From contig CAWDDV010000012.1 in NCBI GenBank assembly GCA_963801205.1, positions 293 through 64,292 of the forward strand: a stretch of DNA of 64,000 bases. The letters are read 5' to 3'. A program made the position numbers and the translations under genes. The first letter of the stretch is position 1, and each line of letters begins with the position of its first letter. This DNA is from an uncultured Acidimicrobiia bacterium. GTDB lineage: Bacteria > Actinomycetota > Acidimicrobiia > Acidimicrobiales > AC-14. Below, piece by piece: positions 6,570-48,603 of this stretch. The notes below the pieces were generated by a model. That model saw only the letters and a program-made list of their open reading frames with translations. It was not told the DNA's origin and did no database searches.

Positions 6570-6602
6570 GACCTACTCGATAGGGGAAACATACACAGTA
6601 GA

Positions 6603-8079: not shown

Positions 8080-8089
8080 GGCGCGGACG

Positions 8090-11447: not shown

Positions 11448-12903
11448 ATGACGCTCGTCCACCGGGTGCTGTACCCGTCGCCGATCATGTCCCTGCAGGA
11501 GTACCTCACGCGGGGGGGTGGGACCGGCATCGAAGCGGCCCGGGAGATGACCCCAGCCGCCATCATCGAGCGGGTGCTCGCCTCCGGCCTCCGGGGCCGA
11601 GGGGGCGCCGGGTTCCCCACCGGCCGCAAGTGGGAGACGGTGGCCGCCAACCACTCGCCGACCGCGCCGTCGACCGTGATCGTCAACGCCGCCGAGGGTG
11701 AGCCGGGCACATTCAAGGACCGCACCATCCTCCGCCGCAACCCGTACGTGGTGATCGAGGGGGCGCTGATCGCGGCCAAGGCGGTCGGCGCCGACCTGGT
11801 CGTCTTCGCCACCAAGGAGGCGTTCGAGGGCGAGATCGACCGGCTGCGGGAGGCCATCGAGGACATCGAGGATCGCGGGCTGGAACGACGGCGTCGAGCT
11901 GATCGTCTTCGAGGGCCCCGACGAGTACCTCTACGGCGAGGAGAGCGCGCTGCTGGAGACGATCGACGGCCGCTGGCCCTTCCCCCGCATCGTCCCCACC
12001 TTCCGCCGGGGACTGCGCCGGGGACCGCTGCCCGAGGACGCCCCCAGCGAGCCGGCCCTGGTCAACAACACCGAGACCCTGGCCAACGTGGCCCGCATCG
12101 TCGGCCGGGGACCGGACTGGTTCCGCACCATGGGTACCGCCGAGTCGCCGGGCACGATCGTGTGCACGGTCACCGGCCGCACCCAGCGTCACGGCGTGGG
12201 CGAGGTCCAGATGGGCACGCCGCTGCGCGAGGTCATCGAGGCCATCGGCGGCGGCCCCGGCCCGGGCGCACGATCAAGGCCGTGCTGTCGGGCGTCGCCA
12301 ACGGGATCATCACCGCCGACGCACCTCGACACGCCGGTGACCTACGAGAGCCTGGCCGCCATCGGCAGCGGCCTGGGGTCGGCCGGCTTCATCGTGTTCG
12401 ACGACGAGACCGACATGACGGCCGTCGCCGCCGGGGTGGCCCGGTTCCTGGCGGTGGAGTCGTGCGGGCAGTGCTCGCCGTGCAAGCTCGACGGGATCAC
12501 GCTGTCGAACTCGCTGGCCCGGCTGGCTTCGCACGGACGGGCCGCCCGCACGACTTCGACGTGGTCGCGCCATCGGCTGACCACCGTCGCCGACCGGTCC
12601 CGGTGCTACCTGGCCACGCAGCAGCAGATCGTGATCGGCAGCATCGTCAAGCACTTCCCGGAGGAGTTCGCGGCCCACGCCGCGCTGGAGCTGCCGCCGT
12701 GCGAGCCCGAGCTGATCGCCGAGCTGGTCGACATCAACAACGGCAGGGCCCTGCTCGACCAGCGTCACCGCCAGAAGCAGTGGGACTGGAGCTTCAACAG
12801 TGGGACTCGGGCACGGTGCCGGTCGAGCGCTACCAGGCGGTGGCGCCGCCGTGGCTGGCCGGCAACCACTACGAGCCGGTCGTGTTGCGCACCGCGGGGG
12901 TAG
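11448..12903 (+). pseudogene. NuoF-like NADH dehydrogenase (51-kDa subunit family, FMN/NADH and 4Fe-4S binding); multiple frameshifts; 3' end uncertain
   Basis: GLRGRGGAGFPTGRKW, NAAEGEPGTFKDR and ESCGQCSPCKLDG motifs. The protein alternates between two frames, with shifts near 11885, 12265, 12325, 12545, 12570 and 12800. Confidence 0.75.
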
Positions 12904-14774: not shown

Positions 14775-16126
14775 TCACCCGGCAGGGAAGCCGCCCGCCG
14801 GTCGCAGTGACACCGCCACCTCCAGCGGCGGCTCGTCCAGGTCGGTCTCCAGCCGGAAGGCCCGGACGAGCGTGGCCACCGCCACCACCAGCTCGGCGGT
14901 GGCCAGGTGTTGGCCGATGCATCCCCTCGGCCCGCCGCCGAAGGGCAGGTGGTGGTAGCGGCCGAGGTCGGCCCCACCGAAGCGGTCGGGGTCGAAGCGG
15001 TCGGGATCGAAGCGGTCGGGATGGGGCCAGACATCCGGGTTGTGGTGGACGCCCCAGATGCTGACCGCCACCAGGTGGCCGGGCGGGATCTCCTCGCCGT
15101 CGAGGGTCGTCGCCGCGTGGGCGTGGCGGACGAGGGTGTGGCCCGGGGGGTAGAGGCGCATGGTCTCGTCGATCACCTGGGCGGTGTAGGTGAGGTGGGG
15201 GAGGTCTCCGGCCGCCACGGGCCGGGCGCCGACCACCGCCTCCACCTCGTCCCGCACCCGTTGCTGGACCTCGGGATGGCGGCCGAGGAGGTGGAGGGTG
15301 AGGGCCATGGTCGTGCCGGTGGTCTCGTGGCCGGCGAGGAGGAGGATGAGGGCCTGGTCCCGGACGGCGTCGTCGTCGAGGGCGGACCCGTCCTCCGGGT
15401 CGCGGGCGGTAAGGAGGAGGCTGAGGAGGTCGTCACCGTCGAGCGTGGGGGCGGCCCGGCGGTCCTCGATGAGCCGGTCGACCAGCCCCCACAGTTCCTT
15501 GCCGCGCCCCTCCGCCCGCCGGTTGGACGCCGTCGGCACCCACGCCGGCAGCCGCACCGGCGAGAGCACCCGGCGGGCGGCGTAGTCGTTGAGCACCTGG
15601 ACGGTGGCCCGCAGCACGGGCGCGGCCGACTCCACGTCGGCCCCGAAGACGCTCCGGCCGAGGACGTCGAGGGCGTAGTGGCCGCCGGCGGCGTTGAGGT
15701 CGACTGGGGCGGCGACGGCCGTGGCCCACGTGGTCGCCAGCCGGTCGGCGGCGGCCGCCATCCCGTCGACGTAGGTCTCGACCCGTCGTCGGGAGAAAGG
15801 GGGCGCCACGATGCGGCGGTCCCGGTGCCAGCGGCCCCGCCGCTGAGGAGGAGGCCGTCGCCGAACACCCGCCGCAGCTCCCCGATCCCGGGGACCTCCT
15901 TGTCGTACCGGGCGGCCTCGGTGGCCAGGATCTGGTGGGCGTCCTCGGGGCGGAAGACGGTGTCGAAGACGAACCCGGCTCTCGGCGGGCCGACCCGGAA
16001 GCGGACCCGTCGCCCGCCATGGTCCTTCAGGGCCTTGGCGTAGGTGGCCAGCTGGTCCTGCTTGAAGTCCCGGCCCGAGCCCGACAGCCACGAGCCCCGG
16101 ATCATCGGGGGCTGGTCGCCGGCCAT
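14775..16126 (-). pseudogene. Cytochrome P450; one frameshift near 15845
   Basis: I-helix LLLAGHETTG, ExxR (ETMRLYPP) and heme loop FGGGPRGCIGQHLA. The N-terminal 95 aa are in ORF 15173..16126. Confidence 0.9.
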
Positions 16127-16146
16127 GCGAGGGAGGATAGGAGGCC

Positions 16147-17433
16147 ATGGCCCCCGCGAGTCGGTCGCAGCAGATCGCCTGGGCGGCCGGCATCGGGACG
16201 GTGGCGGGCCTGGCCCTCGGCGGGCCGCGGCGGCGGGTGGCGGGCGCCGCGCTCGGTGCGGCCGTGGCCGCCGCGTCGGAAGCGGTGGCCCGCCGGCGCC
16301 AGCGGCCGAACGAGATCCCCGCCCGGCGGCATCGGATCCTCATGAGCGGCGCGCTGGCTGCGCCCGTCGGGTGGGCGGTCGGCAAGGTCACCGGCGCGGG
16401 GCCGGTCGCGGTCGGCGTCGGCGCGGGCGCAGCGACGGGCGCGATCGGCCTCCGGCCCCAGAAGGTCGCACTGGGGCCGGTGTTCGGCGCGGCCGTGGGC
16501 CGGGCACTGGCCGCGGTTGACCCCGGCATGCCACCGGCCCGGGTGGCGGCGGCCACCGTCGTGGCCTATCGGGCCCTGTCCGCCGTCGTATTCCGGGACG
16601 CCCAGGTCGACCTGCTGGCCGAGGCCGTCGACCCCGCCGACCTCCCGTTCGTGGTGCCGTTGGAGTCCCGGGCCCGGTACGTGGGCACCGACTACGTGCG
16701 GGAGCTGGCGGCGGTGCTCGGCGGCGCGTACGCCCGGGACGTCGCCGACGCCGGCATCGTGGCGTCCCTCGACACCCTCGCCGGGCCCGACTTCGACCCG
16801 TCGTCGGTCGACGCCCGGGTCCGCCGCTTCTACGAGCACACCAGCCGCTACCGGCTCGACATCGTCCCCGAGTGGCGGCCGTGGGTGCGTCCCGGGTACC
16901 TGCTCTACCGCACGGTCGTGGCCCGGCCCCTGGGCCAGGCCAACGTGCCCATGAACCAGCGGGAGGCGCTGCGGGGCGTCCACAGCCGCATCGACACCAT
17001 CGACGCCGACGGCGACGGCATACCCGAGGTGCGAGGGTGGATCCGGTCCTTCGCCGACGACGACGCCCCCATCTACACCGGCATCTACACCACCTACCGG
17101 CACGAGGACCGGGGCTACGTCAGCGTCGGGTTCCCCCTCCCCCAGGCCAGCTTCACCGCCACCCTCGCCCCCCGCGCCCGGGACGGCGGCGGGCTCACGC
17201 TCAGCTCCCGCCGGCCCGACCTGGCCCACGCCGGCCACTACCTGACCTACATCGACGCCGAGTCCCGGCGGCTCACGACGTTGGCGGTCCACGGGTTCGC
17301 CGAGGAGCTTCACGTGTTCGTCTCGGAGGACGGCGACCTTCGGGCCGACCACGCCTTCTGGGTGTTCGGTCTGCCCTTCCTCGTCCTGCACTACCGGATC
17401 AGCCCGAAGCCGGAGCCCCCCGGGTCATGGTGA
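16147..17433 (+). CDS. Hypothetical protein with a Gly/Ala-rich hydrophobic N-terminal half and a conserved-looking C-terminal domain (possibly DUF4166-like, unverified)
   Basis: Intact 428-aa ORF with codon usage typical of the genome. The family call rests on memory only. Confidence 0.45.
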
Positions 17434-33659: not shown

Positions 33660-35668
33660 TCAGATGACCCGGTCGTTCCCCCCGTCGACCGGGACCTGGG
33701 CGCCGGTGGTACGGGCGAAGGCGGGGCCGCACATGGCCACCACCAGGCGGGCCACGTCGGCGCTGGTGACCTCCGCCCCGAGGACGTTGCCCGTGCGGTA
33801 CTCCTCGGGCGTCATCCCGTAGCGGGCGGCCCGCTCGGCCACCACCTCGTCCGACCACAGCCCGGTGTCGAACACCGCGTTGGGGTGGACGACGTTGACC
33901 CGGATGCCGTCCGGTCCCCACTCGAGCGCCGCCACCCGGGCCAGCTGGGTGAGGGCGGCCTTGGACGCGGAGTAGGCGGCGGCTCCGGGGCCGGGGGCGG
34001 GGACGTTCTTGGACCCGACCACCACCACTCGCCCGCCCCGGGGTGATCGGGCGAGCAACGGGTGGGCCAGGCGGAGGAGGGCGGCGTTGGCGTCGAGGTT
34101 GACGGCCATGGTGTGGCGCCAGGAGGTCGGGTCGAGGTCGGCCACGGCCGCCCCGGGCGGGAAGACGCCCGCGTTGAGGACGAGGACGTCGAGCCCCCCG
34201 AAGCGGGCGACGCACGTCTCCACGGCGGCGTCGAGGGCGGCCTCGTCGGTGACGTCGGCCGCGATGCCGAGCCACGCCGGGTCCCCGTCGTTCTCGGTAG
34301 CGGGGAGTGCGGAAGGCGCACTACCTGCTACCGAGAACGCGGTGTCGACGCCGACCACCGCCGCCCCCTCGGCATGGAAGGCGTCGGCGGTGGCCCGGCC
34401 GATCCCTCTGGCGGCACCGGTCACGAGCGCGATCTCGCCGGCCAGGGGGGCGGGGGCGGGCCGGCGGCGGAGCTTGGCCTGCTCGAGGTCCCAGTACTCG
34501 ACGTCGAACAGGTCGGCGGTGGTCACCGGCCGGTAGCCGCCGAGGGCGGTGGCGTCGGCGATGACCTTCATGGTGTGGCGGTAGACGTCCTCCACGATGG
34601 CCGCGTCCCGGGGCGTGCGGCCGGCGCAACACAGGCCGAGCTCGGGGTCGAGCACCACCCGGGGGGCGGGGTCGAGGGGCAGGAGCGGGCGGGGGGCCCG
34701 GGGGCTGTGCTCGGTGAAGTACCGGCGGTAGGCGTCCACGAAGGCGTCGACGTCGCGGCCCACGAGGGGCACCCGCTTGGTGCGGATGACGTGGTCGGGC
34801 GTGGCCGGTCCGCGTTGGGAGATGTCGGCCATGTCGGCCCGTCCGATGAAGGCCATGGCCTGCCCGTCGGTGTGGGACGACATCACGAACGGGGCCCGGC
34901 CGCGTCGGAGATGCGGCGGCGCAGGTCGGCCCGGGCCAGTCTGACGCCGGCGGCCGGTGGGGGCGCGGGCGGCGCGATGCGGTGGCGGTCGACGAACTCC
35001 TCGGCCCGGCTGACGAGGTCGATCATGGTCTCGTACGACTCCCTCGCCGACTCGCCCCAGGTGAAGATGCCGTGGTTCATGAGGACCACCCCGACGGTGT
35101 CCGGCCGCAGGGCCGTGGGCAGGAGGTGGGAGCACTCCCGGGCCAGAAGGAAGCCGGGCATCACGTAGGGGATGACGACCACCCGGTCGCCGTAGACCTC
35201 GTCGAGGACGCCGGCTGCGTTCTCGGAGTTGGTGAGGGTGACGACGGCGTCGGCGTGGGTGTGGTCGACGAAGCGGTACGGGAGGATGGCGTGGAGGATC
35301 GCCTCCACCGACGGCGCCGGCCCGCCCGCGGTGAGGGACGCCACCAGGAGCTGCTCGGCCATGTCGGTGTCGGAGAGGGCGTCGAGCTCGGCCAGCCGGG
35401 CCACGTCGTCGAGGCGGAGGCAGGCGAAGCCGGGCTTGTCGATGTCGGCCAGATCGGCGCCGCTGCCCTTCACCAAGAGGACGTCGACCTCCTCCCCGAA
35501 GACGGTCGTGCGCCGGGACTTCACCGACGTGTTCCCCCCGCCGTGGAGGACCAGGTCGGGGTCGCGGCCGAGCAGGCGGGACGTGTACACCCGCAGGCCG
35601 AGGTCGCCCTTGGCTGCCCACCGCCCGGCCTCGGCGTCGTCCCACATGCTCTTGACCACTGGTGGCAA
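33660..35668 (-). pseudogene. Bifunctional class II aldolase/adducin-domain plus short-chain dehydrogenase (rhamnulose-1-phosphate aldolase/alcohol dehydrogenase-like); one frameshift near 34890
   Basis: The N-terminal aldolase domain is in ORF 34883..35668. The C-terminal SDR (TGAARGIGRA, YSASKAAL) is in ORF 33660..35864. Confidence 0.8.
34289..34339. repeat. Palindromic repeat (CGTTCTCGGTAGC ... GCTACCGAGAACG), copy A, inside the SDR coding region
   Basis: 13-bp perfect arms, 51 bp in total (17 codons). Same family as 56582-56699 and 57704-57751. Confidence 0.85.
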
Positions 35669-35679
35669 AGCTAGAGGCG

Positions 35680-36891
35680 ATGAGGACGATCGGCATCGAG
35701 GAGCGGCGGGCCCGGGTCGCCCGCCGCCACCGCCTGGCCGCCGACGCCCGGTCGGGCGACGTGGTGGAGACCGTCCGCGACCTCGTCGCCCTCCATGCGA
35801 CCGATCCGGCGTCGGTGTACCTGTCGGTGCTGGCCCGCAGCGACGGGTCGCTCGACGTGGCCACCGTCGAGCGGGAGCTCTACGAGGTCCGCAGCCTGGT
35901 GCGGATGCTCGGGATGCGGCGGACGATGTGGGTGGTGCCGGTGGAGCTGGCGGCCGTCGTCCACGGGGCGTGCACCCGGGCCATCGAGGTGCGGGAACGG
36001 GCCCGGCTGGTGCAGTTCCTCGTCGAGGCGGGCGTCGTCGACGACGAGTCCCAGGGCGGCGCCTGGCTGGCCGAGGTGGAGGACGCCACCGTCGAGGCCT
36101 TGGCCGGCGCTGGCGAGGCCACCGCGGCCGAGCTGTCGCAGCTGGTGGCGGGCCTGCGGGAGCGCCTTCACCTGGGCGTGGGGACGAAGTGGGAGGTGGT
36201 GCAGGGGGCGTCGACCCGGGTGTTGTTCATCCTGGCCGCCGCGGGACGGGTGGTGCGGGGCCGGCCCCGGGGCTCTTGGATCAGCAGCCAGTACCGGTGG
36301 GCCACGACCCCGGCCTGGCTCCCGGGCGGTCTTGACCGGGGGCTGACCCTCCTGCCCACCGGCGTGGCCCAGGTGGAGCTGGTGTGGAAGTGGCTGGCCG
36401 CCTTCGGTCCGGGGACGATGGCCGACCTGGCATGGTGGACCGGGTTGACACTGGGCGAGGTCCGCCGGGCGGTGGCCGAGCTACCGACGGTGGAGGTCGA
36501 CGTCGGGGGCGGGGCGGCCAAGCCGGGCCTGGTGCTGGTCGACGATGTCGACCCCGTGGCGCCGCCGGCGCCGTCGGCGGCGTTGTTGCCCGCGCTCGAC
36601 CCGACCGTCATGGGCTGGAAGGAACGGTCGTGGTACCTGGGCGACCACGGCCCGGCGCTGTTCGATCGCTCCGGCAACGCCGGCCCCACCGTGTGGTGGG
36701 ACGGCCGCATCGTCGGCGGCTGGGCCCAACGTAAGTCCGGCGAGGTCGTCGTGGGCTTCCTGGAGGACGTCGGCCGGGAGGCGGTGACGGCCGTCCTGGC
36801 CGAGGCGGCCCGCCTGCAGGCCGCCGTCGGCCCCGTCCGGGTCACCCCGAGGTTCCGGACCCCGATGGAGCGCGACCTCTCGAACCGGTGA
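35680..36891 (+). CDS. Winged-helix DNA-binding domain protein (YcaQ/AlkZ-like DNA glycosylase family)
   Basis: MRTIGIEERRARVARRHRL.., LVALHATDPASVYLSVLAR, MLGMRRTMWVVP. Intact (the ORF track starts at 35662). Confidence 0.65.
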   Translation: MRTIGIEERRARVARRHRLAADARSGDVVETVRDLVALHATDPASVYLSVLARSDGSLDVATVERELYEVRSLVRMLGMRRTMWVVPVELAAVVHGACTRAIEVRERARLVQFLVEAGVVDDESQGGAWLAEVEDATVEALAGAGEATAAELSQLVAGLRERLHLGVGTKWEVVQGASTRVLFILAAAGRVVRGRPRGSWISSQYRWATTPAWLPGGLDRGLTLLPTGVAQVELVWKWLAAFGPGTMADLAWWTGLTLGEVRRAVAELPTVEVDVGGGAAKPGLVLVDDVDPVAPPAPSAALLPALDPTVMGWKERSWYLGDHGPALFDRSGNAGPTVWWDGRIVGGWAQRKSGEVVVGFLEDVGREAVTAVLAEAARLQAAVGPVRVTPRFRTPMERDLSNR

Positions 36892-36927
36892 CGTTTCTTG
36901 GGGCCAGGGCCCGGCGACCGTCACCAG
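36883..36927. repeat. REP-like hairpin (AACCGGTGACG ... CGTCACC) that contains the stop codon of the preceding gene
   Basis: The left arm overlaps TGA 36889-36891. It lies between convergent genes. Confidence 0.5.
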
Positions 36928-36941
36928 AACGGCGGCGGCGC

Positions 36942-38792
36942 TCAGAAGCGGGGGGTGACGCGCAGGTCGGGGTCGGGTCGGGGCGGTCCCGGGCGACCGG
37001 TGAGGAAGTCGTGGCTGTCCGGGCCAGCCAGCGTCTCGACCAGGAGCCTGGTCTCGGCGGCGGCGGCGTCGCACCACTTCGGGGTGTGCTTGTAGAACCG
37101 CGTGCGACCAGGCGCGGGCTCGGACGGGCCGAACGTCCTCACGAACTGGTCGTAGCCGGGCGACCCGTCGGGCAGGGGAACGTCGAAGATCTCCCTGAGC
37201 CGCAGCGCCTGCTGTTGGAGCTCGCTCATGGCGGTCACGTACCGGGTCCAGCGGTGCTGCGGCCAGTCGAAATCGGCTAGTTCCTCGGCCGCCTGCCGGC
37301 CTCGCTCGGCGACCAGGGCGATCTTGTCCGGGGGCATGGCCAGGTTCATCCCGCCCTCGTCGTCGTGGAGGTGGACATCGACGATGCGGTCGCGGAAGCC
37401 CGGCAACGATCCCTGCCCGTCGTCGGACCAGTTCTGCATCGTGTCGGCGATCCCGTGGAGGAAGCCGAGCAGGGTGCCCGTGTCCTTGATCGCGGGGAGG
37501 CGACCGGTGGCGCCTGGGCCGGGTCGGTAGACGTCGCTCCCGAGGTGCGCCCGGTGGTAGGGCCGCAGGTTGATCCCAAACGTGGGCCGCACCGGGCACA
37601 GGGTGTCGAAGAAGTGGATGGGGAAGTTGCTGGTGATGCCGCCGTCGGAGAACCAGCAGCGGACGGCGACGTGGGTCTCGGCCGACCGGTCGACGGAGAA
37701 GAGCGGGACGGCGCTAACCAGGCCCGGGAAGCTCAGACTGATCCTGGTGGCGACCACGACCGGCATGTCCTCGGGAGGAGGAAGCTTCCGCAGGGGGACG
37801 TCGTGGTCGGGACAGCGCCAGTCCTCGTCGACGACGCTCGTGTCGATCATGTGCCGGTAGATCCGGGGCGGGAAGTAGCGGGCGAGCTCCTTCTCGCAGA
37901 ACAGGTAGAGGTTGAGGTTCGAAGCCTCCGCCGAGAAGGGGAAACGGGCCGGACGGCCGAAGGTGACGTTGGTCGTCATCACCTGCAGGTCGATGGCCGC
38001 GCCGGGCCGGTCACGGAGGTGCCGGAAGGTCAGCGGGCCGGCACCGGCGGGGAGCCCGGCATAGGTGTCGATCGTGTCCGCCATCCAGTCGGTGAGGTGT
38101 ACCGGCCCGCCGGCGGGCGCGTTGGCACCGGCCGACCCGGTGCAGAGGCCGTAGCCGTTGGCGGACAGGCCGCGAAAGCCGCCCACCGCCTGACCGACGA
38201 TCGCGCCCACCAGGCCGAAGACGAGGGCGAAGGGGAGGAGGATCACGGCCCCAATCGCCAGCTGGCCCCATTCGGCCCCGTCGTCGGGTTTGCCGCCGAC
38301 CGCCAGCAGCGCCGGGACGCCGAGCACGTAGAGCAGCAGCAGACCGCCTACGAACCACAACGGCCGGCCCCGGACCAGGGCACCGAGCAGGCGGCGGGCT
38401 TTCGTCCGGATCGACGGCGCCGGGGCCACGCCGGCGAGCAGCACGTCGAAGAGGGCCTTGGTCCCCGGCTGCGGACGGAAGAGGGCCGTCATCTGGTGGC
38501 CCAGCTGCTCGGGCAGGGCGGCCAGGCGGTTGAACCCACCCGAGCCGCGGCCGTACTCGGCGGCGGCCGCCATCGTCGCCGCGATCGCCCCCGCCGACGC
38601 ACCGCCGATGTTCCGGAACCGGTACTTCTTGGCCAGCTCGCAGACCGCCAGCGGGTAGACGATCCCGCTGGTGATCCCGCCCTTCATGACCACGTCGCAC
38701 TCGTCGACCGGCGCCGACGGATAGCTCTCGTCCACCAGCTGCCGGGCTCGTTGGCGTGCCTGGTCGGCGTCCATATATCTCCCGTTCCTCAA
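36942..38792 (-). CDS. Patatin-like phospholipase with two internal predicted TM helices and a C-terminal domain of about 250 aa with unknown function; the likely real start is ATG 38774
   Basis: Oxyanion motif VMKGGITSG, nucleophile elbow GGASAG, catalytic Asp in FSDGGITSNFP. Hydrophobic stretches LWFVGGLLLLYVLGVPALLAVGG and LAIGAVILLPFALVFGLVGAIVG. Intact. Confidence 0.85.
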   Translation of the reverse strand: MRNGRYMDADQARQRARQLVDESYPSAPVDECDVVMKGGITSGIVYPLAVCELAKKYRFRNIGGASAGAIAATMAAAAEYGRGSGGFNRLAALPEQLGHQMTALFRPQPGTKALFDVLLAGVAPAPSIRTKARRLLGALVRGRPLWFVGGLLLLYVLGVPALLAVGGKPDDGAEWGQLAIGAVILLPFALVFGLVGAIVGQAVGGFRGLSANGYGLCTGSAGANAPAGGPVHLTDWMADTIDTYAGLPAGAGPLTFRHLRDRPGAAIDLQVMTTNVTFGRPARFPFSAEASNLNLYLFCEKELARYFPPRIYRHMIDTSVVDEDWRCPDHDVPLRKLPPPEDMPVVVATRISLSFPGLVSAVPLFSVDRSAETHVAVRCWFSDGGITSNFPIHFFDTLCPVRPTFGINLRPYHRAHLGSDVYRPGPGATGRLPAIKDTGTLLGFLHGIADTMQNWSDDGQGSLPGFRDRIVDVHLHDDEGGMNLAMPPDKIALVAERGRQAAEELADFDWPQHRWTRYVTAMSELQQQALRLREIFDVPLPDGSPGYDQFVRTFGPSEPAPGRTRFYKHTPKWCDAAAAETRLLVETLAGPDSHDFLTGRPGPPRPDPDLRVTPRF

Positions 38793-39652
38793 ATCCCGAT
38801 TCGCCTGCGAAAGGCACGGACGATCCCCTCCGCCACCGCAGAGAAGCGAGCGTCCGGGCGACAGTAGGTCTCGAGGTCGGCCAGGTACTGGGTCAGCCGC
38901 GCCCGCAGCTCCGCCCGCTTGCGTGCCCTCTCGGCGGGGATCACCGAGTCGAGGTCGTCCAAGTCCCGCACGACGTCCTCGACGTGGGCGATGGCGGTGG
39001 CGACGGTGATGGCAACCGCCTTGCGACCGTTGGCCAGGCCGAGCCGGCGGAGGGCGGTGATGTGGATCGTGGCCTCGCTGCGCGCTCGGTCCGGACCGCT
39101 GGCGCGGAGGGGGGCCACGTTGCCGTCGTCGGAGAACGTCAGGAAATCAGCCGGATTATCGACGGTCGGATCGAGCAGCAGCGGCAGCTCGGCCGTCGCC
39201 TGGGCCCCGGGCCTGCGGGCTCGCTTCCCGGCGACGGGGAACTGGCTGGCCTTGCCGGCGACGGCCCGGCCGTCGGGGCCGACCAGGTCGTGCTCCCGGG
39301 CCCGGTTGCAGTCGATGCAGGACGGGAGGAGGTTCTCCCACGCCGCGGCCAACCACCAGTAGCCGGGCGTCACCAGCCTCTTGCCATGGAGGTAGCCCGA
39401 CTTGGGCCGGTAGTGCTCGACGTCGACCGGTTGCACCTCGTCGTACCGGGCCTCGCAGTAGGCGCACTTCCCGGCCGACATCCGGGCCAGCTCGGCGCGC
39501 ACGTCGGCGCCCTTGTAGGCCTGGAAGCGGAAGGTGGCGGTAGCGGCGGCCTGGCCCCGGAACACGAGCTTCGCCCGGGCCAGTTCCCGACCTCCCGCCG
39601 ATGCGTCGCCGTCGAGGCTGGGGGGAGCCGGGCCGCGAACGAGCTGGCGCAT
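38789..39652 (-). CDS. HNH nuclease of the TIGR02646 / Septu PtuB-like type
   Basis: GKCAYCE..VDVEHYRPKS..WENLLPSCIDCNRA (CxxC..H..N..CxxC, beta-beta-alpha-Me scaffold). The start lies 1 nt after the upstream ATPase stop. Intact 287 aa. Confidence 0.75.
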   Translation of the reverse strand: MRQLVRGPAPPSLDGDASAGGRELARAKLVFRGQAAATATFRFQAYKGADVRAELARMSAGKCAYCEARYDEVQPVDVEHYRPKSGYLHGKRLVTPGYWWLAAAWENLLPSCIDCNRAREHDLVGPDGRAVAGKASQFPVAGKRARRPGAQATAELPLLLDPTVDNPADFLTFSDDGNVAPLRASGPDRARSEATIHITALRRLGLANGRKAVAITVATAIAHVEDVVRDLDDLDSVIPAERARKRAELRARLTQYLADLETYCRPDARFSAVAEGIVRAFRRRIGI

Positions 39653-39653
39653 C

Positions 39654-41215
39654 TCAGTCGAGGGACTCGAGGGTGGTCGCGGACCAGATGGAGCGCAGCT
39701 CGGCGAGCGTGCTCTCCTTGAGGTCGGCCCGGGCCAGCTCGCCCTTGGTCGCCCGCTGCTCGGCCAGGTACTGCTCGGCCGCTTCCAGCGCCAGCCGCTC
39801 CCGGGGCGTCTCGCCGAGCACCCGCAGCGGTTCCAGCTTGGCGGTCAGGGCGGCCAACCGCTGCTCCTGGGCGGGCGTGCGCGTGGGGGCCGCTTTCAGA
39901 GCGAAGTACTCGTCGAACTCGGCCTCCAGCTCGGGGTCGATGGTGCTGCGCAGGCCGAACAGCTCGGATGTGAGGAGCTGGTCGGTGCGCATGGCCCCCA
40001 CCGGCGGCAGATCGGTGCGGACCACGACGGTGCGGGCCCGGTCGACCAAGCGCTCGACCACCACCACTTCACCGTCGCGGAGGCCTCGCAGGCAGAGCGG
40101 GTCATGGGTCGTGACCAGGAACTGCACGCGTGGGAAGAGCGCCCGCAGCCGGCCGACGATGCGCATCCGCCACCGGGGATGGAGGTGGGATCCCATCTCG
40201 TCGATCACGACCACGCCTTCGGCCGCGGTGAGGTCGGACCACCGGCTGAACAGGACGCTCATGATGTCGGCGGCGAGGGCGACGACCGACTGGTAACCGT
40301 CGCTCATCTCCTCCAGGCGGACACTGGCACCCAGCGTGCGGCACCGGATCTCATTACTGGCCCGATGGCGCTGGATGACGTCCTCGCCCTCCATGCCGAG
40401 AAGGCCCCGGAGGCCTCGGGCGGCCGCCGCGAACTCTCTGTCGCCCAGGGACAGCAGCCACGACGTGGCGTTGGCCAGCGGGGCGAAGGGATCGAAGAGG
40501 TTCGCCACCCGTGAGATCTGGGCCGCGGGGGCGTCCTCCTGCCGACGTGGAAGGAGGCGGGTCGAGCCATAGGCCAGGAGGAGGACCTTCGGGTCCGGGG
40601 ACCCTTCCCACGAGGGGTCGGTCCTGCTGAAGGTAAGTGTGAGGGGCTCGTCGATCCCGGTCAGCCATACGCGGACCGACCCCTTCTGTGCGCCGTGCCG
40701 GACGTAGCGGCGGGGGTCCAGGCCAGCTCGGCCCGTGCCTGCTGGCCCATGAGGGTGAGGGCGACAGCCTGAAGCACCGAGCTCTTCCCGGCCCCGTTCT
40801 CGCCCAGGAGGCTCAACCACGTGCCGCCGTCGGCACCGACCTCGGGGACGTCGAGCGCCAAGTTGGCGATGGGACGGAAGTTCCGGATCTCGAGGCGGCG
40901 AATAAACCGAGCGGTCTTGAAGTAGTCGACGTTCGTCGCCTCGTCCTCCAGCGAGTAGCTCGACTGTTGGATGCGGGATTCGGACTCGGCCCGCTGGGCA
41001 GTCTCCTCGTCCTCCACGCTGCGCTTCTTCAGCCGCACGTCGCCGATGAGGAGGTGATCTCCCGTGTCGACGATCGTTGTCTGGTCGGACTTGGCTAGGA
41101 GGCCACCAGCCACAGCCAGCCGCCGAACCGCCTGCCGGCGCGCCCCCGCGTATGGTGCCCTCTCGTCCAAGGACTGGTCGAGGCCAGGACGCCGCCACTG
41201 ATGTTGTGCCTCCAA
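39654..41215 (-). pseudogene. ABC/SMC-type AAA ATPase (AAA_15/AAA_21, Septu PtuA-like); one frameshift near 40730; probably fused to the upstream HNH-like module
   Basis: Walker A LLGENGAGKSSVL, signature-like MSDGYQSVVAL, Walker B GVVVIDEMGSHLHP, TTHDP. The N-terminal part is in ORF 40661..41215 and the rest in ORF 39654..41198. Confidence 0.75.
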
Positions 41216-41822
41216 GATCGCTTCACGGCGAGCCGGATGAGCTTGGTGTCGTTGAGATCGAAGGTCTCGATGGTGTACTGGCCCCGGACGCTTTCGGCGG
41301 CAACCTGCCCATTGTCAAGGAAGACCAGGTGTTCGTCGGGATCGTCTGCGCACGGATCGAGCAGGAGCGGCCGTTCGGCTGCCAGGAGGGCGCCGTAGGT
41401 ACCGATTCTGACGCGGTACCTTTGGACAGGGAAACGGCGGCCACGGGCTCGGGAGCAGCGGTGGCAGATCACGTAGAGGTTGTCCCACTCGTATGCCAGC
41501 CAGGCGTAGTGCTCCGAGCTCACGTCGCCGTTCCGGCCTACTGCCCCGCTGGGCGGCCGGTACCAGGAGATCGTGTCTATGTCCACGTTTGGCGACTCGC
41601 AGAACGCGGCACTTGCCAAAGAGCTTCAACAGGGCGGCCGCTAGCTCCGGATGCCTGAGCACGTTGTCGTCGCGCGGAACAAATGCCAGCTGCGCGCGCT
41701 TGGAGGTAGGCGAATTGATCTGACTGCGGGCCCACCTCGAGGGCTTCGCCGCGGGCCTCGGTGGTGCGAGCGTTGAGGAATACCGCTGGCGGGCCGGATG
41801 TCGGGCGCTCGACTCGAATCAC
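41095..41822 (-). pseudogene. Degenerate HNH-like (PtuB-paralogous) module; frameshifts near 41730, 41608 and 41220. The frame of the downstream ATPase stays open across the junction.
   Basis: Same scaffold as gene 38789..39652 (GKC-AFCES..VDID-TISW-YRP..YEWDNLYVICHRCSRA..FPV..PLLLDPC.DDP), but the catalytic His is replaced by TISW and the Asn by Ser. Confidence 0.55.
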
Positions 41823-41916
41823 ACCACCACCGCCGTTCGCTCGCCGCCCGTGGGCCGAACCTAGCCCGGTGGAGGCGATCCCGCTCGGGACCGGCGGGCG
41901 ACGGCGACGGGGTCGG

Positions 41917-43626
41917 TCAGGCGGGGCGGCGAACGACCGCGACGCTCGCCGGCGGCAAGCTCACGACGCCGTCGTCGGTGGTGGTGGCCGTGTCGTCCGA
42001 GGCCATGACCATGTCGCCGGCGACCCCCGAGATCCGGCGCGATTCAGGCGAGAAGTTGCAGGCGATGGCGAACGGGCCCCGCTCCAAGACCAGCCAGCGC
42101 TGGTCTTCGTCGAAGCGGACGTCGAGGCCGTCGAAGCTCCCCGACGACAACGGCGGCTCGGACCGCCGCAGGGCGATGAGGCGGCGGTGCCAGTCGAGGA
42201 GCTCTCGGTGGACGCCGTCGCCGACCTCGTCCCAGTCGAGGCGGGAGGCCTCGAAGGTCTTGGGGGACTGGGGGTCGGGCACGTCCTCCGGCGACCACCC
42301 GAAGGCGGCGAACTCCCGGCGCCGGCCCTCGCTCACCAGCCGCCCCAGCTCGGCGTCCTCGTGGTCGGTGAAGTAGAGGAAGGGCGTGCTCGCCCCCCAC
42401 TCCTCCCCCTGGAACAGCATGGGGACGAACGGACCGAGCAGGACCAGGGCGGCCGACAACTTCACCAACCCCGGCCCGACCAGCATCGACGACCGCTCGC
42501 CGGTGGCCCGGTTGCCCACCTGGTCGTGGTTCTGCAGGTAGCCGAGGAACTTCGAGGCGGGCAGCCCGGTCGGCTGACGGCCGTGGCGGCGCCGGCGGAA
42601 GGCTGAGTACTCGCCGTCGTGCACGAACGCATGGCGCAGGGCCTTGGCCAGCTGCCCTACCGTCCCGAAGTCGGCGTAGTACCCCGATCGCTCCCCGGTG
42701 ACGACGGTGTGGAGGGCGTGGTGGAAGTCGTCGCTCCACTGGGCGTCGAGCCCGTACCCTCCCACGACCCGGGGCCGCACCACCCGGGGGTCGTTGAGGT
42801 CGCTCTCCGCCACCAGGAACCCATCCCCGCCCACCTCGACCGCCAGCTCTTCCAGGATGTGGGTAGCGGACGTGTCGAGGATGGCGTGCACCGCATCGAG
42901 GCGCAGGCCGTCGGCGTGGTAGTCCCGCAGCCACATACGGGCGTTGTCGACCACGAACGCCCGCACCTCGTCGCTCCCGGGGCCGTCGAAGTTGACCGCC
43001 TCGCCCCACGGGGTGTGGTAGCGGTCGGTGAAGTAGGGCCCGAACTCCCGCAGGTAGTTCCCCGCCGGGCCCAGGTGGTTGTAGACGACGTCGATGACCA
43101 CGGCCAGGCCCTTCCCGTGGGCCGCGTCCACCAGCCGTCGGAGGCCGCCGGGCCCGCCGTAGGCGGCGTGGGGCGCGAACAGGTCGACCCCGTCGTACCC
43201 CCACCCCCATCGACCGGGGAACTGGTTGACGGGCATGAGCTCGACCACGTCGGCGCCGAGGTCGACGAGGTGGTCGAGGCGGGCGATGGCCCCGTCGAAG
43301 GTCCCCTCGGGCGAGAAGGTCCCCACGTGCAGCTCGTAGATCACCGACGACCCGTCCAGCGGACGACCACGCCACCCGCCGTCGGTCCAGGCGAAGGCGT
43401 CGTGGTCGACCATCCGAGAGAGCCCGTGGACGCCGTCCGGTTGCCACCGCGATCGGGGATCGGGACGGGCCGGCCCGCCGTCGAGCGAGAACCCGTAGGA
43501 CTGGCCGACCGCGGGCTCGGCCTCGGTCCGGAACCAGCCCCGCTCGTCGGGACCGTCCATCGCCACCCGCCGGTCGCCGACCACCAGGTCGACCCGCTCC
43601 GCCCGGGGCGCCCAGACCGACGTCAC
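41917..43626 (-). CDS. treZ: Malto-oligosyltrehalose trehalohydrolase
   Basis: GH13 motifs VIDVVYNH, GLRLDAVH, VAESD, YLQNHDQ. The GTGA start overlaps the treY stop. Intact. Confidence 0.9.
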   Translation of the reverse strand: MTSVWAPRAERVDLVVGDRRVAMDGPDERGWFRTEAEPAVGQSYGFSLDGGPARPDPRSRWQPDGVHGLSRMVDHDAFAWTDGGWRGRPLDGSSVIYELHVGTFSPEGTFDGAIARLDHLVDLGADVVELMPVNQFPGRWGWGYDGVDLFAPHAAYGGPGGLRRLVDAAHGKGLAVVIDVVYNHLGPAGNYLREFGPYFTDRYHTPWGEAVNFDGPGSDEVRAFVVDNARMWLRDYHADGLRLDAVHAILDTSATHILEELAVEVGGDGFLVAESDLNDPRVVRPRVVGGYGLDAQWSDDFHHALHTVVTGERSGYYADFGTVGQLAKALRHAFVHDGEYSAFRRRRHGRQPTGLPASKFLGYLQNHDQVGNRATGERSSMLVGPGLVKLSAALVLLGPFVPMLFQGEEWGASTPFLYFTDHEDAELGRLVSEGRRREFAAFGWSPEDVPDPQSPKTFEASRLDWDEVGDGVHRELLDWHRRLIALRRSEPPLSSGSFDGLDVRFDEDQRWLVLERGPFAIACNFSPESRRISGVAGDMVMASDDTATTTDDGVVSLPPASVAVVRRPA

Positions 43627-46278
43627 CGGCGCACCAGCAGCGCCACCGGGAAACGGGCCAGCAGTTCGCCGACGGCCACCGGGCCGCCCTCGACCTCGGC
43701 TCCGTCCAGCGCGTCCACCCACGCCCCGGGGGGCACGCCGACGGCGGTGTCACCCCAGCCGCCGGACCGGGCCAACCCGACGACCAGCCGGGGCACGACG
43801 ACCGCCACCTGCCCGCCCCGTACGAACCCGACCACGTGGTCGGCCGCCGACCCCTTCGCCATCAGCGGTTCGTAACCGGCCGCGGACCCGGCGAACGCCT
43901 CCGGGTGCTCGCGGCGCACGCCGAGCGCCCGCCACACCGTCCACAGCTTGGCCGCCCCTTCGTCGGCGAGGGCCGACACGTCGGCCGCCGACATGCCCCG
44001 CACCTTCTCCAGCAGGCTGCGGCGGGACTGGTAGTCGACCGGGCGGCGGTTGTCGGGGTCGACCAGGCTGAGGTCCCACACCTCCGTCCCCTGGTACAGG
44101 TCGGGAACGCCGGGCGAGGTGAGCTTGAGCAGGGCCTGGGCCACCGAGACCACCCGTCCCGGCTCCACCAGCGGCCCCACGAACCGGCCCAGGTCGGCCA
44201 TGAACTCCGCATCCCCGACCACGGCCGACACGAACTCCCGCAGCGCCCCGTCATACTCCGGCGAAGGGTCGATCCACGACGTGTGCTCCTTGGCCTCCCG
44301 CGTCGCCTTCTCCATGTAGGCCGCCGCCCGCTCGGCGTCGAGAGGGTGGGCGCCCACGAGGGTCTGGTACAGGAGGTACTCGGCGTTGGCGTCGGGGAGA
44401 CCGTCCGTCTTGTGGCGGGCGTTTATGGCCGTCCACCGGCGGACGGCCTCGGCCCACTCGGCGGGGATCTCCGACAGCAGGCCGATGCGGGCCCGGACGT
44501 CCTCGCTGCGCTTGGTGTCGTGGGTGGACGTGGCCAGCATGGTGTGGGGCCAGACGGCTGCCATCCGCCCGTTGAAGCGGTGGAACTCGTCGACCGACGC
44601 GCCGAACCGCCCGGGATCGCCGCCGACGTCGTTGAGGCTGACCAGCCGGTTGTAGCGGTAGAAGGCGGTGTCCTCCACCCCCTTGGCCATGACCGGTCCG
44701 GTGACCTGCTGGAAGCGGAGGGCGAAGTCGGCCTCCGCCTCGCCCGGCACCTTCAGGAGCAGCAGGTCGCACAGGAACGAGAACAGGGCCGGGTCGAGCT
44801 GGGGGCGGCGGGCGGCGGCCGTGTCCACCGCTGTCCGCACCACCTCGACGTCGTGGTCGGAGGGCGGCTCCCCCGGCCGCACGTAGGTCCGGTAGACGGG
44901 GAAGCAGGCCAGCATCTCCCACAGGGCCTCGTGCAGGTCGCGACGGGTGTAGTCCCGGTAGCGGCGGTGGCGCTCGCAGACCGAGACCAGGAGGTTCACC
45001 AGCCGGTTGACGTCGGCCCCCAGCACCTCCCGCAGGACCAGGTTCTTGCCCTCGGCCACGGCGTCGTCCCAGCGGGGCGGGTCGGCCAGCCCCAGGACCT
45101 CCCGGTAGAGCTCGGTGAGGGGCGCCTTGCCGGCGGGGTCGACGAACAGGCCCGCCACCACGTTGAGGAAGTCGTAGCCGGTCGTGCCGGCCACGGGCCA
45201 TGACGCCGGTAGGGCCTCGTCCCGCTCGAGGATCTTCTCCACCACCACGTAGGCGCCGTCGGACTCCTCGTGCAGCCGGTGGAGGTAGGCGGTCGGGTAG
45301 CGGAGGCCGTCGATGTGATCGACCCGGAGCCCGTCCACTCGACCGTCCTTCACCAGCTCGAGCATCTTCTCGTGGGCGGCGGTGAAGATCCGCTTCTTCT
45401 CGGTGCGCAGCCCGATGAGGGTGGGCACGTCGAAGAAGCGGCGGTAGTCGAGCTCCTGGCCGGCCGCCCGCCAGTAGGCCAGGCGGTAGTTCTGGCGTTC
45501 GAGGAGGGCGTCGAGGGCGTCGGGATCGTCGTTGGTGGCGGCGACGCCCCCGTCGACGGCCCGGGCCAGCTGGAGGTTCTCGTCTAGCAGCCGGGCCAGC
45601 TGGCCCCGGAGGACCTCCTTGTCCCGGTGGCGCTCGATGACGCTCTTCCTCGTCGGTGGCGTTGGCCGGTGGCAGGCGGCCGAGGGCGACGGCCAGGCTG
45701 GCCAGCTCGTCGGACCCGAAGAGCTCCGCCGTGCGTCCGAGCAGCTCGTCGAGGGTGCGGGGCGACACCGGCACCAGGTGGTCGAAGTAGCGGACGACGA
45801 AGCTGCCGCCGTCGCGGCCGAGGCGGAGGTCGCCCGCCTCCAGCACCCGTCCGTAGTGGTCGCCCAGGAAGGGGAGGAGGACCTTCTGGTGGGAGGCGCC
45901 GTCGGTGTCCCAGTCGATGTCGAAGGCGGCCGCCCACCGGCTGGACTGGCCGTTCTCCAGGACGTCCCACCACCAGGCGTTGGTCTCGCCGATGGCCATG
46001 TGGTTGGGGACGATGTCGACCACCTGGCCCAGTCCCCGGCGGGCCAGGGCCTCCGACAGCCGCTCGTGGCCGGCCTCGCCGCCGAGCTCGGCGTTGATCC
46101 GGGAGTGGTCGATCACGTCGTAGCCGTGGGTGCTGCCGGCCACCGCCTGCAGGATCGGCGACAGGTAGGCATGGCTCACGCCCAGGTCGGCGAGGTAGTC
46201 GACGATCTCGACGGCGTCGTCGAACGTGAACCCGGCGTGCATCTGGAGGCGGTACGTCGCCCGCGGCGGTCGTGTCAT
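43623..46278 (-). pseudogene. treY: Malto-oligosyltrehalose synthase; one frameshift near 45640
   Basis: N-terminus ATYRLQMHAGFTFDDA..YLSPIL..VDIVPNH (ORF 44251..46278). The rest, including GLRVDHIDGL, is in ORF 43623..45428. Confidence 0.9.
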
Positions 46279-46343
46279 CGGCGCTCCCGACCGTACCCAA
46301 GGGAGTGACCGGGGAAGCCCACCGCGTCCGCTTCAATAGGGCC

Positions 46344-47411
46344 ATGGACCTTCCGGTCATGCCCCCGGTCAAGCCGATGCTGGCCAAGCTGTCGCGAGAG
46401 CTGCCGGCCGCCGGTGGGGTGGTGTACGAGCCCAAGTGGGACGGGTTCCGGGGCATCGTGTTCCGCGACGGCGACGAGGTGGAGATCGGCAGCCGCAAGG
46501 AGAAGCCGCTGACCAGGTACTTCCCGGAGCTGGTCGACCCCATCCGGGCGCAACTCCCGAAGCGGTGCGTCGTCGACGGCGAGATCGTGATTGCCACCCC
46601 GAGCGGGCTCGACTTCGAAGCGTTGCAGCTGCGGATCCACCCGGCGGAGTCCCGCATCAAGATGCTGGCCCGGGAGATTCCCGCCTCCTTCGTTGCCTTC
46701 GACCTGCTGGCCATGGGCGACGACGACCTGCGGGGCCGCCCGTTCTCCGAGCGCCGGGCCCTGCTCGAGGAGGCCTTGGCGGGGGCCACGCCGCCCATCC
46801 ACCTCACCCCCGCCACCGACGACCGGGCGGTGGCCGAGCAGTGGTTCGAGAACTTCGAGGGGGCCGGCCTCGACGGCGTGGTGGCCAAACCCGTCCACCT
46901 TCCCTACCGGGAGGACGAGCGGGTGATGCTCAAGGTCAAGCACCAACGGACGGCCGACTGCGTGGTGGCCGGCTTCCGCTGGCACAAGAGTGGCCCCATC
47001 GTGGGGTCCCTCCTCCTCGGCCTCTACGACGCCGACGGGTCGCTCCATCACGTGGGCGTGGCCGCCGCCTTCTCCATGGCCCGGCGCAAGGAGCTGGTCG
47101 ACGAACTGGCGCCCTACCGGGTCGATGCCCTCGACGGCCACCCGTGGGCCGAGTGGGCCGAGTTCATGACCGCTTCCGGGGGCCAGGTGCCGGGGATGGG
47201 AAACCGGTGGAACGCGGGCAAGGACATGTCGTGGGAGCCGCTGCGAGCGGAGCTGGTGGTGGAGGTCGCCTTCGACCACATGCAGGGCGAACGCTTCCGC
47301 CACGCCACCAACTTCGTCCGCTGGCGCCCCGAGCGCGACCCACAGTCGTGCACCTACGACCAACTCGAGGTGGCGGTGCCGAAGGAGCTGGCCGAGGTCT
47401 TCGGCGCGTAG
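46344..47411 (+). CDS. ligC: ATP-dependent DNA ligase (short LigC-type)
   Basis: Adenylation motif I YEPKWDGFR plus the downstream nucleotidyltransferase and OB-fold motifs (EGLVAK-like GLDGVVAKP, KVKHQRTADCVV). Intact. Confidence 0.8.
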   Translation: MDLPVMPPVKPMLAKLSRELPAAGGVVYEPKWDGFRGIVFRDGDEVEIGSRKEKPLTRYFPELVDPIRAQLPKRCVVDGEIVIATPSGLDFEALQLRIHPAESRIKMLAREIPASFVAFDLLAMGDDDLRGRPFSERRALLEEALAGATPPIHLTPATDDRAVAEQWFENFEGAGLDGVVAKPVHLPYREDERVMLKVKHQRTADCVVAGFRWHKSGPIVGSLLLGLYDADGSLHHVGVAAAFSMARRKELVDELAPYRVDALDGHPWAEWAEFMTASGGQVPGMGNRWNAGKDMSWEPLRAELVVEVAFDHMQGERFRHATNFVRWRPERDPQSCTYDQLEVAVPKELAEVFGA

Positions 47412-47478: not shown

Positions 47479-47568
47479 GTCGGTAATTCCTTCCGTCCGA
47501 TCCCTCATCCATGTACCGCTCCGCTGCCACTCGGATGCGACCGAACGCATCGAGTAATCAGGCGGCGG

Positions 47569-48199
47569 TCATTGTGCGGAAGAGGGCTCGAGGTAGCCGA
47601 TCGGGCCTCCAGAGGAGACCGTGATCCGGCTCGCCATGATCCTGTCTACGAGCGGGCGGAGGTGGCCAGGCATTGGTTCACGTGACGCGGCCACCATCCC
47701 CGGCGAGACCCGCGTGAGGAGCGTGCCGACGAAGTGATGGCGTGGCGCCTCCTCGTCCGGGCGCGGTATAGGACTCGCTGTGCCCGGTCAACAGATACAC
47801 CGCGACAGGGAACGTCGCAACGGTCACCGCGAAGAGTTCGTTGTCCAGGACCCGAGCTGGATTGCATCGCCACCAGCGAAGGCTCGTCTCGTCGAGTTCA
47901 GTGTCAGTGTGCTGAACGTGAAAGCCGATCCAGCGACGCGAGTCGTAGGGGTACTTCGCGGCCTCCTGACGAGCGTCTGTGCGCAGAACGGTTAGTTGCC
48001 CGTCAACGACCCGTAGCTTGGGGCGGTCGAGGAGACGTTCAATCGAAGGGGCTGTGATCGGCAGGGTGAGCATTCCCGCACGCACCATCTTGTCGACGTG
48101 CGCAACGTGCAGGTCGAGACGTGCCGCCGCCACGGTTCGAGATAGCGCTTCAGGTCGGCTGTCGGGTACCGCGGACGTGGCAAATGTAGGCAGAGGCAT
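47569..48199 (-). pseudogene. Hypothetical protein in a lower-G+C patch; one frameshift near 47760
   Basis: ORF 47678..48199 continues in another frame (..PDEEAPRHHFVGTLLTRVSPGMVAAS..GYLEPSSAQ) to the stop at 47569. I recognise no family. Confidence 0.35.
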
Positions 48200-48264
48200 A
48201 TCGTGGCCCTTCGGTAGGGTTGGGTCTCGGTGACCCTTGATGGCGACGAACCTGATGGCCCGTC

Positions 48265-48603
48265 ATGCGTTGCACAATACACGATTTTCGCCACGTCGGG
48301 CACATGACGGCGTACACCGCCCGGACGTCGGCCCTCGTCGCCCACCTCGGCGGTACCCGGCCGACCTTCCTCAGCCCGCGGGAGGCGGAGGTCGCCACGC
48401 TCGTGGCCGAGGGACTCACCAACCGGCAGATCGCCCAGCGGCTCGTCATCTCCGAGCGGACCGCCCAGAACCATGTGCAGCACATCCTGGTCAAGCTCGG
48501 GTTCACCACCCGCAGCCAGATCGCGGCGTGGTGGCGCGGGGGGGACCAGATGAGTACTCCGATGAGTCATCCGGCGGATTCCAGAAGATCGGCGTTTTCG
48601 TAG
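48265..48603 (+). CDS. LuxR/GerE-type HTH protein (DNA-binding domain only)
   Basis: [44 protein letters not shown]. Confidence 0.7.

Follow-up and report, generated by a model that had tools for sequence, protein, structure and literature searches.

What kind of system do the genes behind treZ form on contig CAWDDV010000012.1 of an uncultured Acidimicrobiia bacterium (assembly GCA_963801205.1), and is it a new one? The DNA analysed here, hereafter the window, is a stretch of 64,000 nt of this contig, and it carries on its minus strand three close-packed genes, ptuA, ptuB and a patatin gene, between treZ and an AlkZ-like glycosylase gene. A first-pass annotation of the window had divided the same string into four parts (an HNH-like module, an ATPase, an HNH nuclease and a membrane-anchored patatin-like lipase) and had proposed that they make up an undescribed defence operon. 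We establish here the identity of the three genes, document their operon-like packing and demonstrate that the triad recurs and is inherited together in other organisms. In our opinion, the locus is probably a three-gene variant of Septu, composed of a long-form PtuA, PtuB and a patatin phospholipase. The motifs and coordinates quoted in the first-pass annotation were all found on the minus strand, as was treYZ immediately upstream in the same orientation; it is the division into genes, and what can be called new, that have to be revised.

The HNH-like module and the ATPase belong to one gene. In the assembly, the stretch is read as three open reading frame (ORF) fragments (41095-41619, 40661-41215 and 39654-40700), which are colinear on the PADLOC hidden Markov model (HMM) PDLC00292 (PtuA1), where they occupy positions 62-188, 223-372 and 377-720 of 726, with E-values of 4e-42 for the N-terminal part, 8e-31 for the middle and 2e-119 for the C-terminal part. 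They are likewise colinear on PDLC00288 and PDLC00291. Once the four frameshifts are repaired, the resulting 722-aa protein matches the intact PtuA genes of nine fetched loci in a single high-scoring segment pair over ~700 residues (tblastn), aligns in one piece with intact homologues of 706-790 aa and is covered at 100% by database proteins of 722-748 aa. The colinear HMM mapping and the single-segment alignments rule out two separate genes for the module and the ATPase. All the parts of the four-part string are present, but the first two are one gene, encoding a long PtuA. Its ATPase region, recognized in Pfam as AAA_21, AAA_23 and AAA_15, exhibits a Walker A motif (GENGAGKSS), a signature (SDGYQS), a Walker B motif (VVVIDEMG) and an H-loop (TTHDP).

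The N-terminal module, which the first-pass annotation had called degenerate, does resemble an HNH domain and has no catalytic histidine. The CxxC pairs are retained, and the position of the catalytic His is occupied by Trp (ISWYRP vs VEHYRP in PtuB). In an alignment of 25 PtuA N-terminal domains and 26 PtuB sequences, this position is His in about one third of the PtuA domains and R, Q, N, L or W in the others, and the TIGR02646 model gives 29.5 bits on the domain here, for a cut-off of 52.15. Judging from this alignment, the ‘degenerate HNH’ is genuine, yet it characterizes long PtuA proteins as a family and is often putatively dead as a catalyst. The idea of a second HNH module added to the pair must be abandoned: the module is the N-terminal domain of PtuA, common in ordinary two-gene Septu, and since it is already included in PDLC00292, PDLC00288 and PDLC00291, it represents nothing new. 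Two-gene systems of long PtuA and PtuB are found on plasmids of Klebsiella variicola, Bacillus, Gluconobacter, Janthinobacterium, Roseovarius, Sphingomonas, Sinorhizobium and Rhizobium, and two of the four closest PtuA relatives of the window copy are of this form. The domain is absent from all solved PtuA structures that we found; the match of these proteins (456-552 aa) is confined to the C-terminal half of the ATPase (residues about 489-627), and 8EE4 and 8EEA (465 aa), whose match spans residues ~500-589, differ from the protein here in having no HNH-like N-terminal domain. For annotation in general, the ‘extra HNH’ of a long PtuA should be taken as a normal domain of that protein.

The second gene encodes an intact HNH nuclease of the PtuB type, in agreement with the first-pass annotation. 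The full motif set is present and the PADLOC PtuB1 model PDLC00328 matches with an E-value of 4e-69, while TIGR02646 (47.1 bits) falls slightly short of its cut-off of 52.15. The catalytic His (EH[YFW]RP) and the other HNH residues are retained in each of the 26 aligned PtuB sequences. With the E-values given above for PtuA1 and PtuB1, the pair was correctly recognized as Septu PtuA/PtuB. Septu type I systems, as modelled in PADLOC, are reportedly those of Doron 2018. When the locus is set against this definition, the PtuA match, the PtuB match with its catalytic residues, and two adjacent, co-directional and nearly overlapping genes are all found, and what is lacking is the intactness of both genes, ptuA being frameshifted in the assembly. 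As judged by these profile matches, the core is Septu type I with a long-form PtuA, an already named system. The locus departs from Septu type I in its third conserved gene, a transmembrane patatin that lies outside the PADLOC models.

PtuAB cores with a third component have been described before. The third component of Septu type II is a regulator rather than an effector, and the third Septu gene of PADLOC, PtuC, is a reverse transcriptase (PMC8565338). Retron type I-A provides a precedent for the coupling of PtuAB to an extra module (PMC8565338; PMC12819146). Similar to Septu type II/retron type I-A (Ec78/Eco7, in which a reverse transcriptase and its non-coding RNA accompany PtuA and PtuB), the locus extends a PtuAB core by a third component; unlike in retron type I-A, this component is a lipase. 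Next to the locus lie treZ and the AlkZ-like glycosylase gene and no reverse transcriptase gene (no Rfam search was made on the locus); the locus is for this reason not of the retron type. The NCBIfam equivalogs of Ec78 remain far under their cut-offs (NF041760 for PtuA, 81.8 vs 500 bits; NF041761 for PtuB, 50.9 vs 150).

The third gene encodes a patatin-like phospholipase, for which the catalytic set is intact and two hydrophobic segments are predicted, as previously proposed. The Pfam Patatin family (PF01734) matches with 48.6 bits, for a gathering cut-off of 27.7, the oxyanion motif (GGITSG), the nucleophile motif (GASAG) and SDGG are all present, and a Kyte-Doolittle scan delineates the two segments. 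In the family alignment A1, S66 and D383 are invariant and the helix columns are hydrophobic throughout. The AlphaFold2 model (predicted local distance difference test, pLDDT, 79; predicted template-modelling score, pTM, 0.80) exhibits a patatin core into which a helical hairpin is inserted, together with a helical domain at the C-terminus, and has helices at H144-166 and H186-211; the two helices inserted in the patatin domain are predicted to form a membrane hairpin. Translation most likely starts at ATG 38774, which is preceded by a ribosome-binding site and is also the start of the database protein P0001 (610 aa, 100% identical to the patatin) and of the alignment with the patatin of the orthologous locus L111. 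The upstream TTG 38792 is less supported as a start. The contig context of P0001 was not on record in the exact-protein look-up.

The family to which this protein belongs consists of ~610-aa proteins (5853 matches at E <= 1e-5) annotated as RssA, SuhR or ‘RpoH suppressor’. The NCBIfam search returned no name for the patatin, and neither it nor its homologues from the Rhizobium and Paracoccus triads match any of the 5027 PADLOC v2 models. ExoU and VipD, large patatins that need a partner protein for their activity, are the nearest solved structures by sequence profile and fold, although these matches are very weak (E ~2e-3 to 4e-3, template-modelling score ~0.2) and both proteins are secreted effectors that have no membrane hairpin. 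Another related protein is CapV, the patatin effector of the cyclic oligonucleotide-based antiphage signalling system (CBASS), presented as a phospholipase (PMC12480259). In both cases, a patatin-fold phospholipase stands in a defence operon and would be expected to damage the membrane. Unlike CBASS, the operon here comprises only ptuA, ptuB and the patatin gene, without a cGAS/DncV-like nucleotidyltransferase (CD-NTase), and its patatin, which matches no CBASS effector model of PADLOC, differs from CapV by its length of ~610 aa, its inserted hairpin and its C-terminal helical domain.

Does this lipase gene belong with the Septu pair? The packing of the three genes is operon-like, as the first-pass annotation had proposed; the ptuA stop codon (TGA, 39656-39654) is separated by 1 nt from the ptuB start codon (ATG 39652), and a spacer of 14 nt containing the ribosome-binding site separates the ptuB stop from the patatin ATG. 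The comparison drew on 92 loci with a patatin of this family, of which 10 came from genomes and 80 from metagenomes, while 2 were obtained by exact look-up. Clustering of the neighbouring ORFs revealed PtuA/PtuB as the sole recurrent partner (16 of the 92 loci), any other cluster being present in five loci at most. Among 20 plasmid records with this patatin, at least 10 have PtuA 1-3 kb away. The triad is present in soil actinobacteria (Actinomycetota) and on Rhizobium and Paracoccus plasmids (Alphaproteobacteria), and it occurs both on chromosomes and on plasmids; the annotation ‘AAA family ATPase / endonuclease / patatin-like phospholipase’ can be read in Rhizobium indicum, R. etli, R. beringeri and Paracoccus. 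In cultured strains with finished sequences, the ATPase gene shares 1-14 nt with the nuclease gene, and a spacer of 12-33 nt comes before the patatin gene. Three gene orders were observed: ptuA-ptuB-patatin, patatin-ptuA-ptuB, and a divergent order in which the patatin gene faces away from ptuA-ptuB. The catalytic motifs, GG(I/V)TSG, G(T/A)SAG and SDGG, are found in all 16 triad patatins. The orthologous locus L111 exhibits the same succession treY-treZ-ptuA-ptuB-patatin, with 74.6% DNA identity over 6.6 kb and an intact PtuA of 732 aa. The divergent order is that of L115 (1985-6946), a relative with a 57% identical PtuA, in which the patatin gene lies 32 nt from ptuA.

The phylogenies of the three proteins agree with one another. 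In the PtuA tree, the patatin-linked proteins group coherently amid two-gene systems, in one clade from Alphaproteobacteria and two from actinobacteria, and the window copy falls with those of loci L028, L051, L007 and L029. Identical sub-clades are found in the PtuA, PtuB and patatin trees, and the distances are correlated between PtuA and patatin (Mantel r 0.87) as between PtuA and PtuB (0.75; p = 2e-4 for both). One could imagine that a two-gene Septu system has simply come to lie beside an unrelated housekeeping membrane lipase of the ‘RssA’, ‘SuhR’ or ‘RpoH suppressor’ kind, considering that several thousand such proteins are known, that they mostly occur in varied contexts without PtuAB and that long-PtuA Septu is mostly a two-gene system. 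Such a coincidence is disfavoured, and we regard it as very improbable, since PtuA/PtuB is the sole recurrent neighbour of the family, the triad occurs in two phyla, on two types of replicon and in three orders with short spacers, the trees agree in their sub-clades and L111 retains all three genes.

Several observations weigh against a three-gene Septu system. Most patatins of the family occur on their own, including relatives with 66-68% identity, and among the 34 loci in which 2.5 kb or more can be seen on each side, PtuA/PtuB is found in 10 and is absent from 24; the lipase is in this sense independent of the pair and works without it. The synteny that the first-pass annotation had made central to its proposal does recur in other genomes, in three orders and with co-varying phylogenies, but most patatins do without PtuAB. 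The correlation between PtuA and patatin distances may partly reflect host phylogeny. A scan of positions 36500-42300 revealed no promoter-like site and a single terminator, which is at chance level, although such a scan is uninformative in a genome with a G+C content of 71%. The genes flanking the locus in the window are housekeeping genes and do not form a defence island. A defence context is seen elsewhere, on Rhizobium plasmids, where the neighbours of the triad include a type II methyltransferase, an LmuB-like ATPase and an IetA/S8-peptidase pair. Finally, ptuA is disrupted as assembled, and the heritable splitting of PtuA on plasmids of R. indicum and R. leguminosarum suggests that the ATPase may be dispensable or counter-selected. 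In the R. beringeri plasmid pRlX1 (L103, 9379-10773), the triad is followed directly by an IetA-like ATPase (PADLOC E-value 8.5e-88) with an S8 peptidase and has two PLD-like genes upstream, an arrangement that resembles a defence island.

The disruption of ptuA raises the question whether the system is alive. The four sites proposed in the first-pass annotation (~41730, 41608, 41220 and 40730) proved accurate when refined by comparison with the intact orthologue in L111. Because of these four single-base insertions and deletions (indels), the system would be inactive as assembled. The locus could be a dead remnant, in which the frameshifts are real, Septu has been inactivated, and PtuB and the patatin survive by chance or independently of PtuA. 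We give this explanation slightly less than an even chance. The indels are concentrated in ptuA, four in 2.2 kb, vs two in ~10 kb of neighbouring genes (treY and the aldolase/dehydrogenase gene), and the fragment ORFs are recorded only in NCBI/ENA, where three of nine start-codon variants exist. The finished Rhizobium plasmids, from two countries, exhibit a heritable PtuA split beside intact ptuB and patatin genes; a natural disruption of PtuA in this setting does occur. The drop in G+C content that had been noticed at 40.8-41.8 kb, and that runs across the N-terminal half of ptuA, is also real (0.644-0.660 over 40750-41749 vs 0.70-0.73 in the flanks). On the other hand, the repaired reading contains no in-frame stop, all its ATPase motifs are intact, and it departs from the family at only 1 of 73 highly conserved columns, as compared with 0-10 for 19 intact homologues. 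Three housekeeping genes of the window (treY, a cytochrome P450 gene and the aldolase/dehydrogenase gene) also appear frameshifted, which points to assembly error of the indel type, and in a related locus from a nanopore-derived metagenome-assembled genome (L010), PtuA and PtuB are garbled in a similar fashion. Assembly error or very recent mutation would account for the indels, two possibilities that are hard to separate, since the repaired gene shows no other decay and three more genes of the window look frameshifted. An independent Logan contig, L109 (run ERR11593888), matches the window with 100% identity over 38135-40431 and is silent on the frameshifts because it ends 290 nt before the nearest one. 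No near-identical intact PtuA was present among the protein-search matches.

The interrupted genes of the window and of the plasmids can be described as follows. In treY (maltooligosyl-trehalose synthase, 43623-46278, minus strand), with an apparent frameshift junction near 45650, the N-terminal alpha-amylase part lies in ORF 44254-46332 and the remainder in ORF 43626-46112. The gene for a bifunctional class-II aldolase/short-chain dehydrogenase (SDR; 33663-35680, minus strand) is split in two frames near 34900, with Aldolase_II in ORF 34886-36226 and SDR in ORF 33663-35879. The cytochrome P450 gene (14778-16153, minus strand, junction near 15800) is matched by Pfam from profile position 93 on in ORF 14778-16565, its N-terminal part being seemingly in another frame. 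These three cases are backed by Pfam; the scan of the whole window for phase changes in third-position G+C content (GC3) and for ORF overlaps was too noisy to count frameshifts. On the minus strand at 4400-9200, many GC3 phase switches occur over ~5 kb, which could correspond to further frameshifts or to several small genes; the open frame 4674-6572 in this region contains a PadR domain and a truncated ABC_tran domain. On R. indicum pPR13E04 (L096, 3788-6014) and R. leguminosarum pRLa11 (L110, 2690-4820), a frameshift after ‘...HLVPR’ divides PtuA into an N-domain ORF of 215-247 aa and an ATPase ORF of 456-478 aa, with PtuB and patatin intact. In a relative from R. etli (L098), ptuA is unbroken.

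If the system is functional, how could a nuclease and a lipase work together? Close packing and shared inheritance suggest a functional link between the patatin and PtuAB. PtuA has been described as an ATP-regulated oligomer; its C-terminal domains bind PtuB between them, and it controls the nuclease (PMC12065111). By analogy with Septu and with retron Ec78/Eco7, the ATP-regulated PtuA oligomer of our locus would be expected to hold PtuB and to release or activate the nuclease upon infection. With its intact Ser-Asp dyad and its two-helix membrane hairpin, the patatin is probably an effector: it would attack the membrane as a second effector beside the nuclease, or would do so when licensed by PtuAB. 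Infection would then trigger both nucleic-acid cleavage and phospholipid hydrolysis, with abortive infection as the outcome. Alternatively, the patatin could be a sensor or an anchor at the membrane, reporting the perturbation caused by phage entry or tethering PtuAB, in a manner that recalls the regulation of PtuAB by the reverse transcriptase and its multicopy single-stranded DNA (msDNA) in retron I-A. This is an unlikely role, for which one can invoke the regulatory nature of the third component in Septu type II (PMC8565338), the effector already supplied by PtuB with its intact catalytic residues, and the conservation of the membrane hairpin. The strict conservation of the Ser-Asp dyad and of the oxyanion motif in all triad patatins rather argues for an enzymatic role, and the stand-alone members of the family do without PtuAB altogether. 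Beyond a three-gene Septu variant with a lipase effector, it is tempting to suggest that long PtuA, PtuB and the patatin constitute a distinct, cross-phylum Septu subtype, in which PtuAB would be physically coupled to the membrane phospholipase, with nuclease and lipase fired by one sensing event, or with the lipase reporting phage membrane damage to the nuclease complex; we put this forward tentatively, as possible but somewhat doubtful.

The coordinates of the features discussed are given in Table 1. The gap between treZ and ptuA is 94 nt.

Table 1. Position of the ptuA-ptuB-patatin genes, their domains and motifs, the frameshift sites in ptuA and the adjacent genes.
Feature	Position	Strand	Remarks
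ptuA, long form	39654..41822	-	repaired ~722 aa; four single-base frameshifts; frames 2>3>1>3>2
PtuB-like HNH-like N-terminal domain of PtuA	41236..41822	-	PDLC00292 positions 62-188; PtuB models
Linker, ABC/SMC-type ATPase of PtuA and C-terminal helical region	39654..41233	-	Pfam, PADLOC
Frameshift 1	41735..41737	-	one extra base (GAG-G-TGG)
Frameshift 2	41608..41609	-	extra C at 41608; GTGCGCG in L111, GTGCCGCG here (GTGC-C-GCG)
Frameshift 3	41232..41236	-	one base missing near 41234-41235 (ATCCGG^CTC)
Frameshift 4	40722..40725	-	one base missing at 40724 (GCTGG^CCTGG vs CTCGGGCTCGAC in L111)
ptuB, intact HNH nuclease	38789..39652	-	287 aa; CAYCE, VEHYRP, WENL, CIDCN
Shine-Dalgarno-like GGGAG	38779..38783	-	4 nt before ATG 38774, within ptuB-patatin spacer
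Patatin-like phospholipase gene	36942..38774	-	610 aa from ATG 38774; 616 aa if TTG 38792
Catalytic Ser codon S66 (GASAG)	38595..38597	-	partner Asp D383 (SDGG) at 37644-37646
Two hydrophobic helices	38175..38363	-	residues 144-169 and 173-206 (616-aa ORF); Kyte-Doolittle scan
treZ	41917-43722	-	treY and treZ directly upstream of ptuA, same strand
AlkZ-like glycosylase gene	35662-36891	convergent to triad	downstream neighbour

Two other features of the window can be mentioned. After the ATP-dependent DNA ligase gene (46272-47411), the stretch 47500-48500 has a lower G+C content (0.62-0.66), and its sole ORF recognized by Pfam encodes a LuxR/GerE regulator (48265-48603). ARAGORN predicted two overlong tRNAs, at 4106-4193 (88 nt) and 11532-11625 (94 nt), which lie in coding-like sequence and are probably false positives.

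How much of this is new? Our literature search retrieved no paper containing both ‘PtuA’ and ‘patatin’, and only surveys and reviews for ‘Septu’ combined with ‘patatin’ or ‘phospholipase’. The undescribed system proposed in the first-pass annotation is in part a known one, as the PtuAB core matches a named subtype in PADLOC, but the linkage to a patatin was in no paper or PADLOC model that we found. The association of PtuAB with a patatin appears to be undescribed, and the triad, although conserved across two phyla, is an incremental extension of Septu. To our knowledge, no ABC-ATPase/HNH module has so far been described as coupled to a lipid-directed enzyme. Septu is among the commonest anti-phage systems. 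Retron I-A wires PtuAB to a separate sensing module; the patatin variant would add a second kind of partner and would tie a nucleic-acid-directed defence complex to the membrane. The variant is open to direct testing, as Rhizobium etli NXC12, R. beringeri TP66, Paracoccus sp. SMMA_5, Nocardioides astragali and Rhabdaerophilum sp. SD176 are cultured and carry intact triads. The R. etli NXC12 triad spans pRetNXC12e 125650-130316 and a Paracoccus triad spans pNSM5TCa 221008-226084; the triads of L007, L028 and L098 are likewise intact. It would, moreover, provide the large, uncharacterised family of ~610-aa membrane patatins presently annotated as RssA, SuhR or ‘RpoH suppressor’ with its first functional context.

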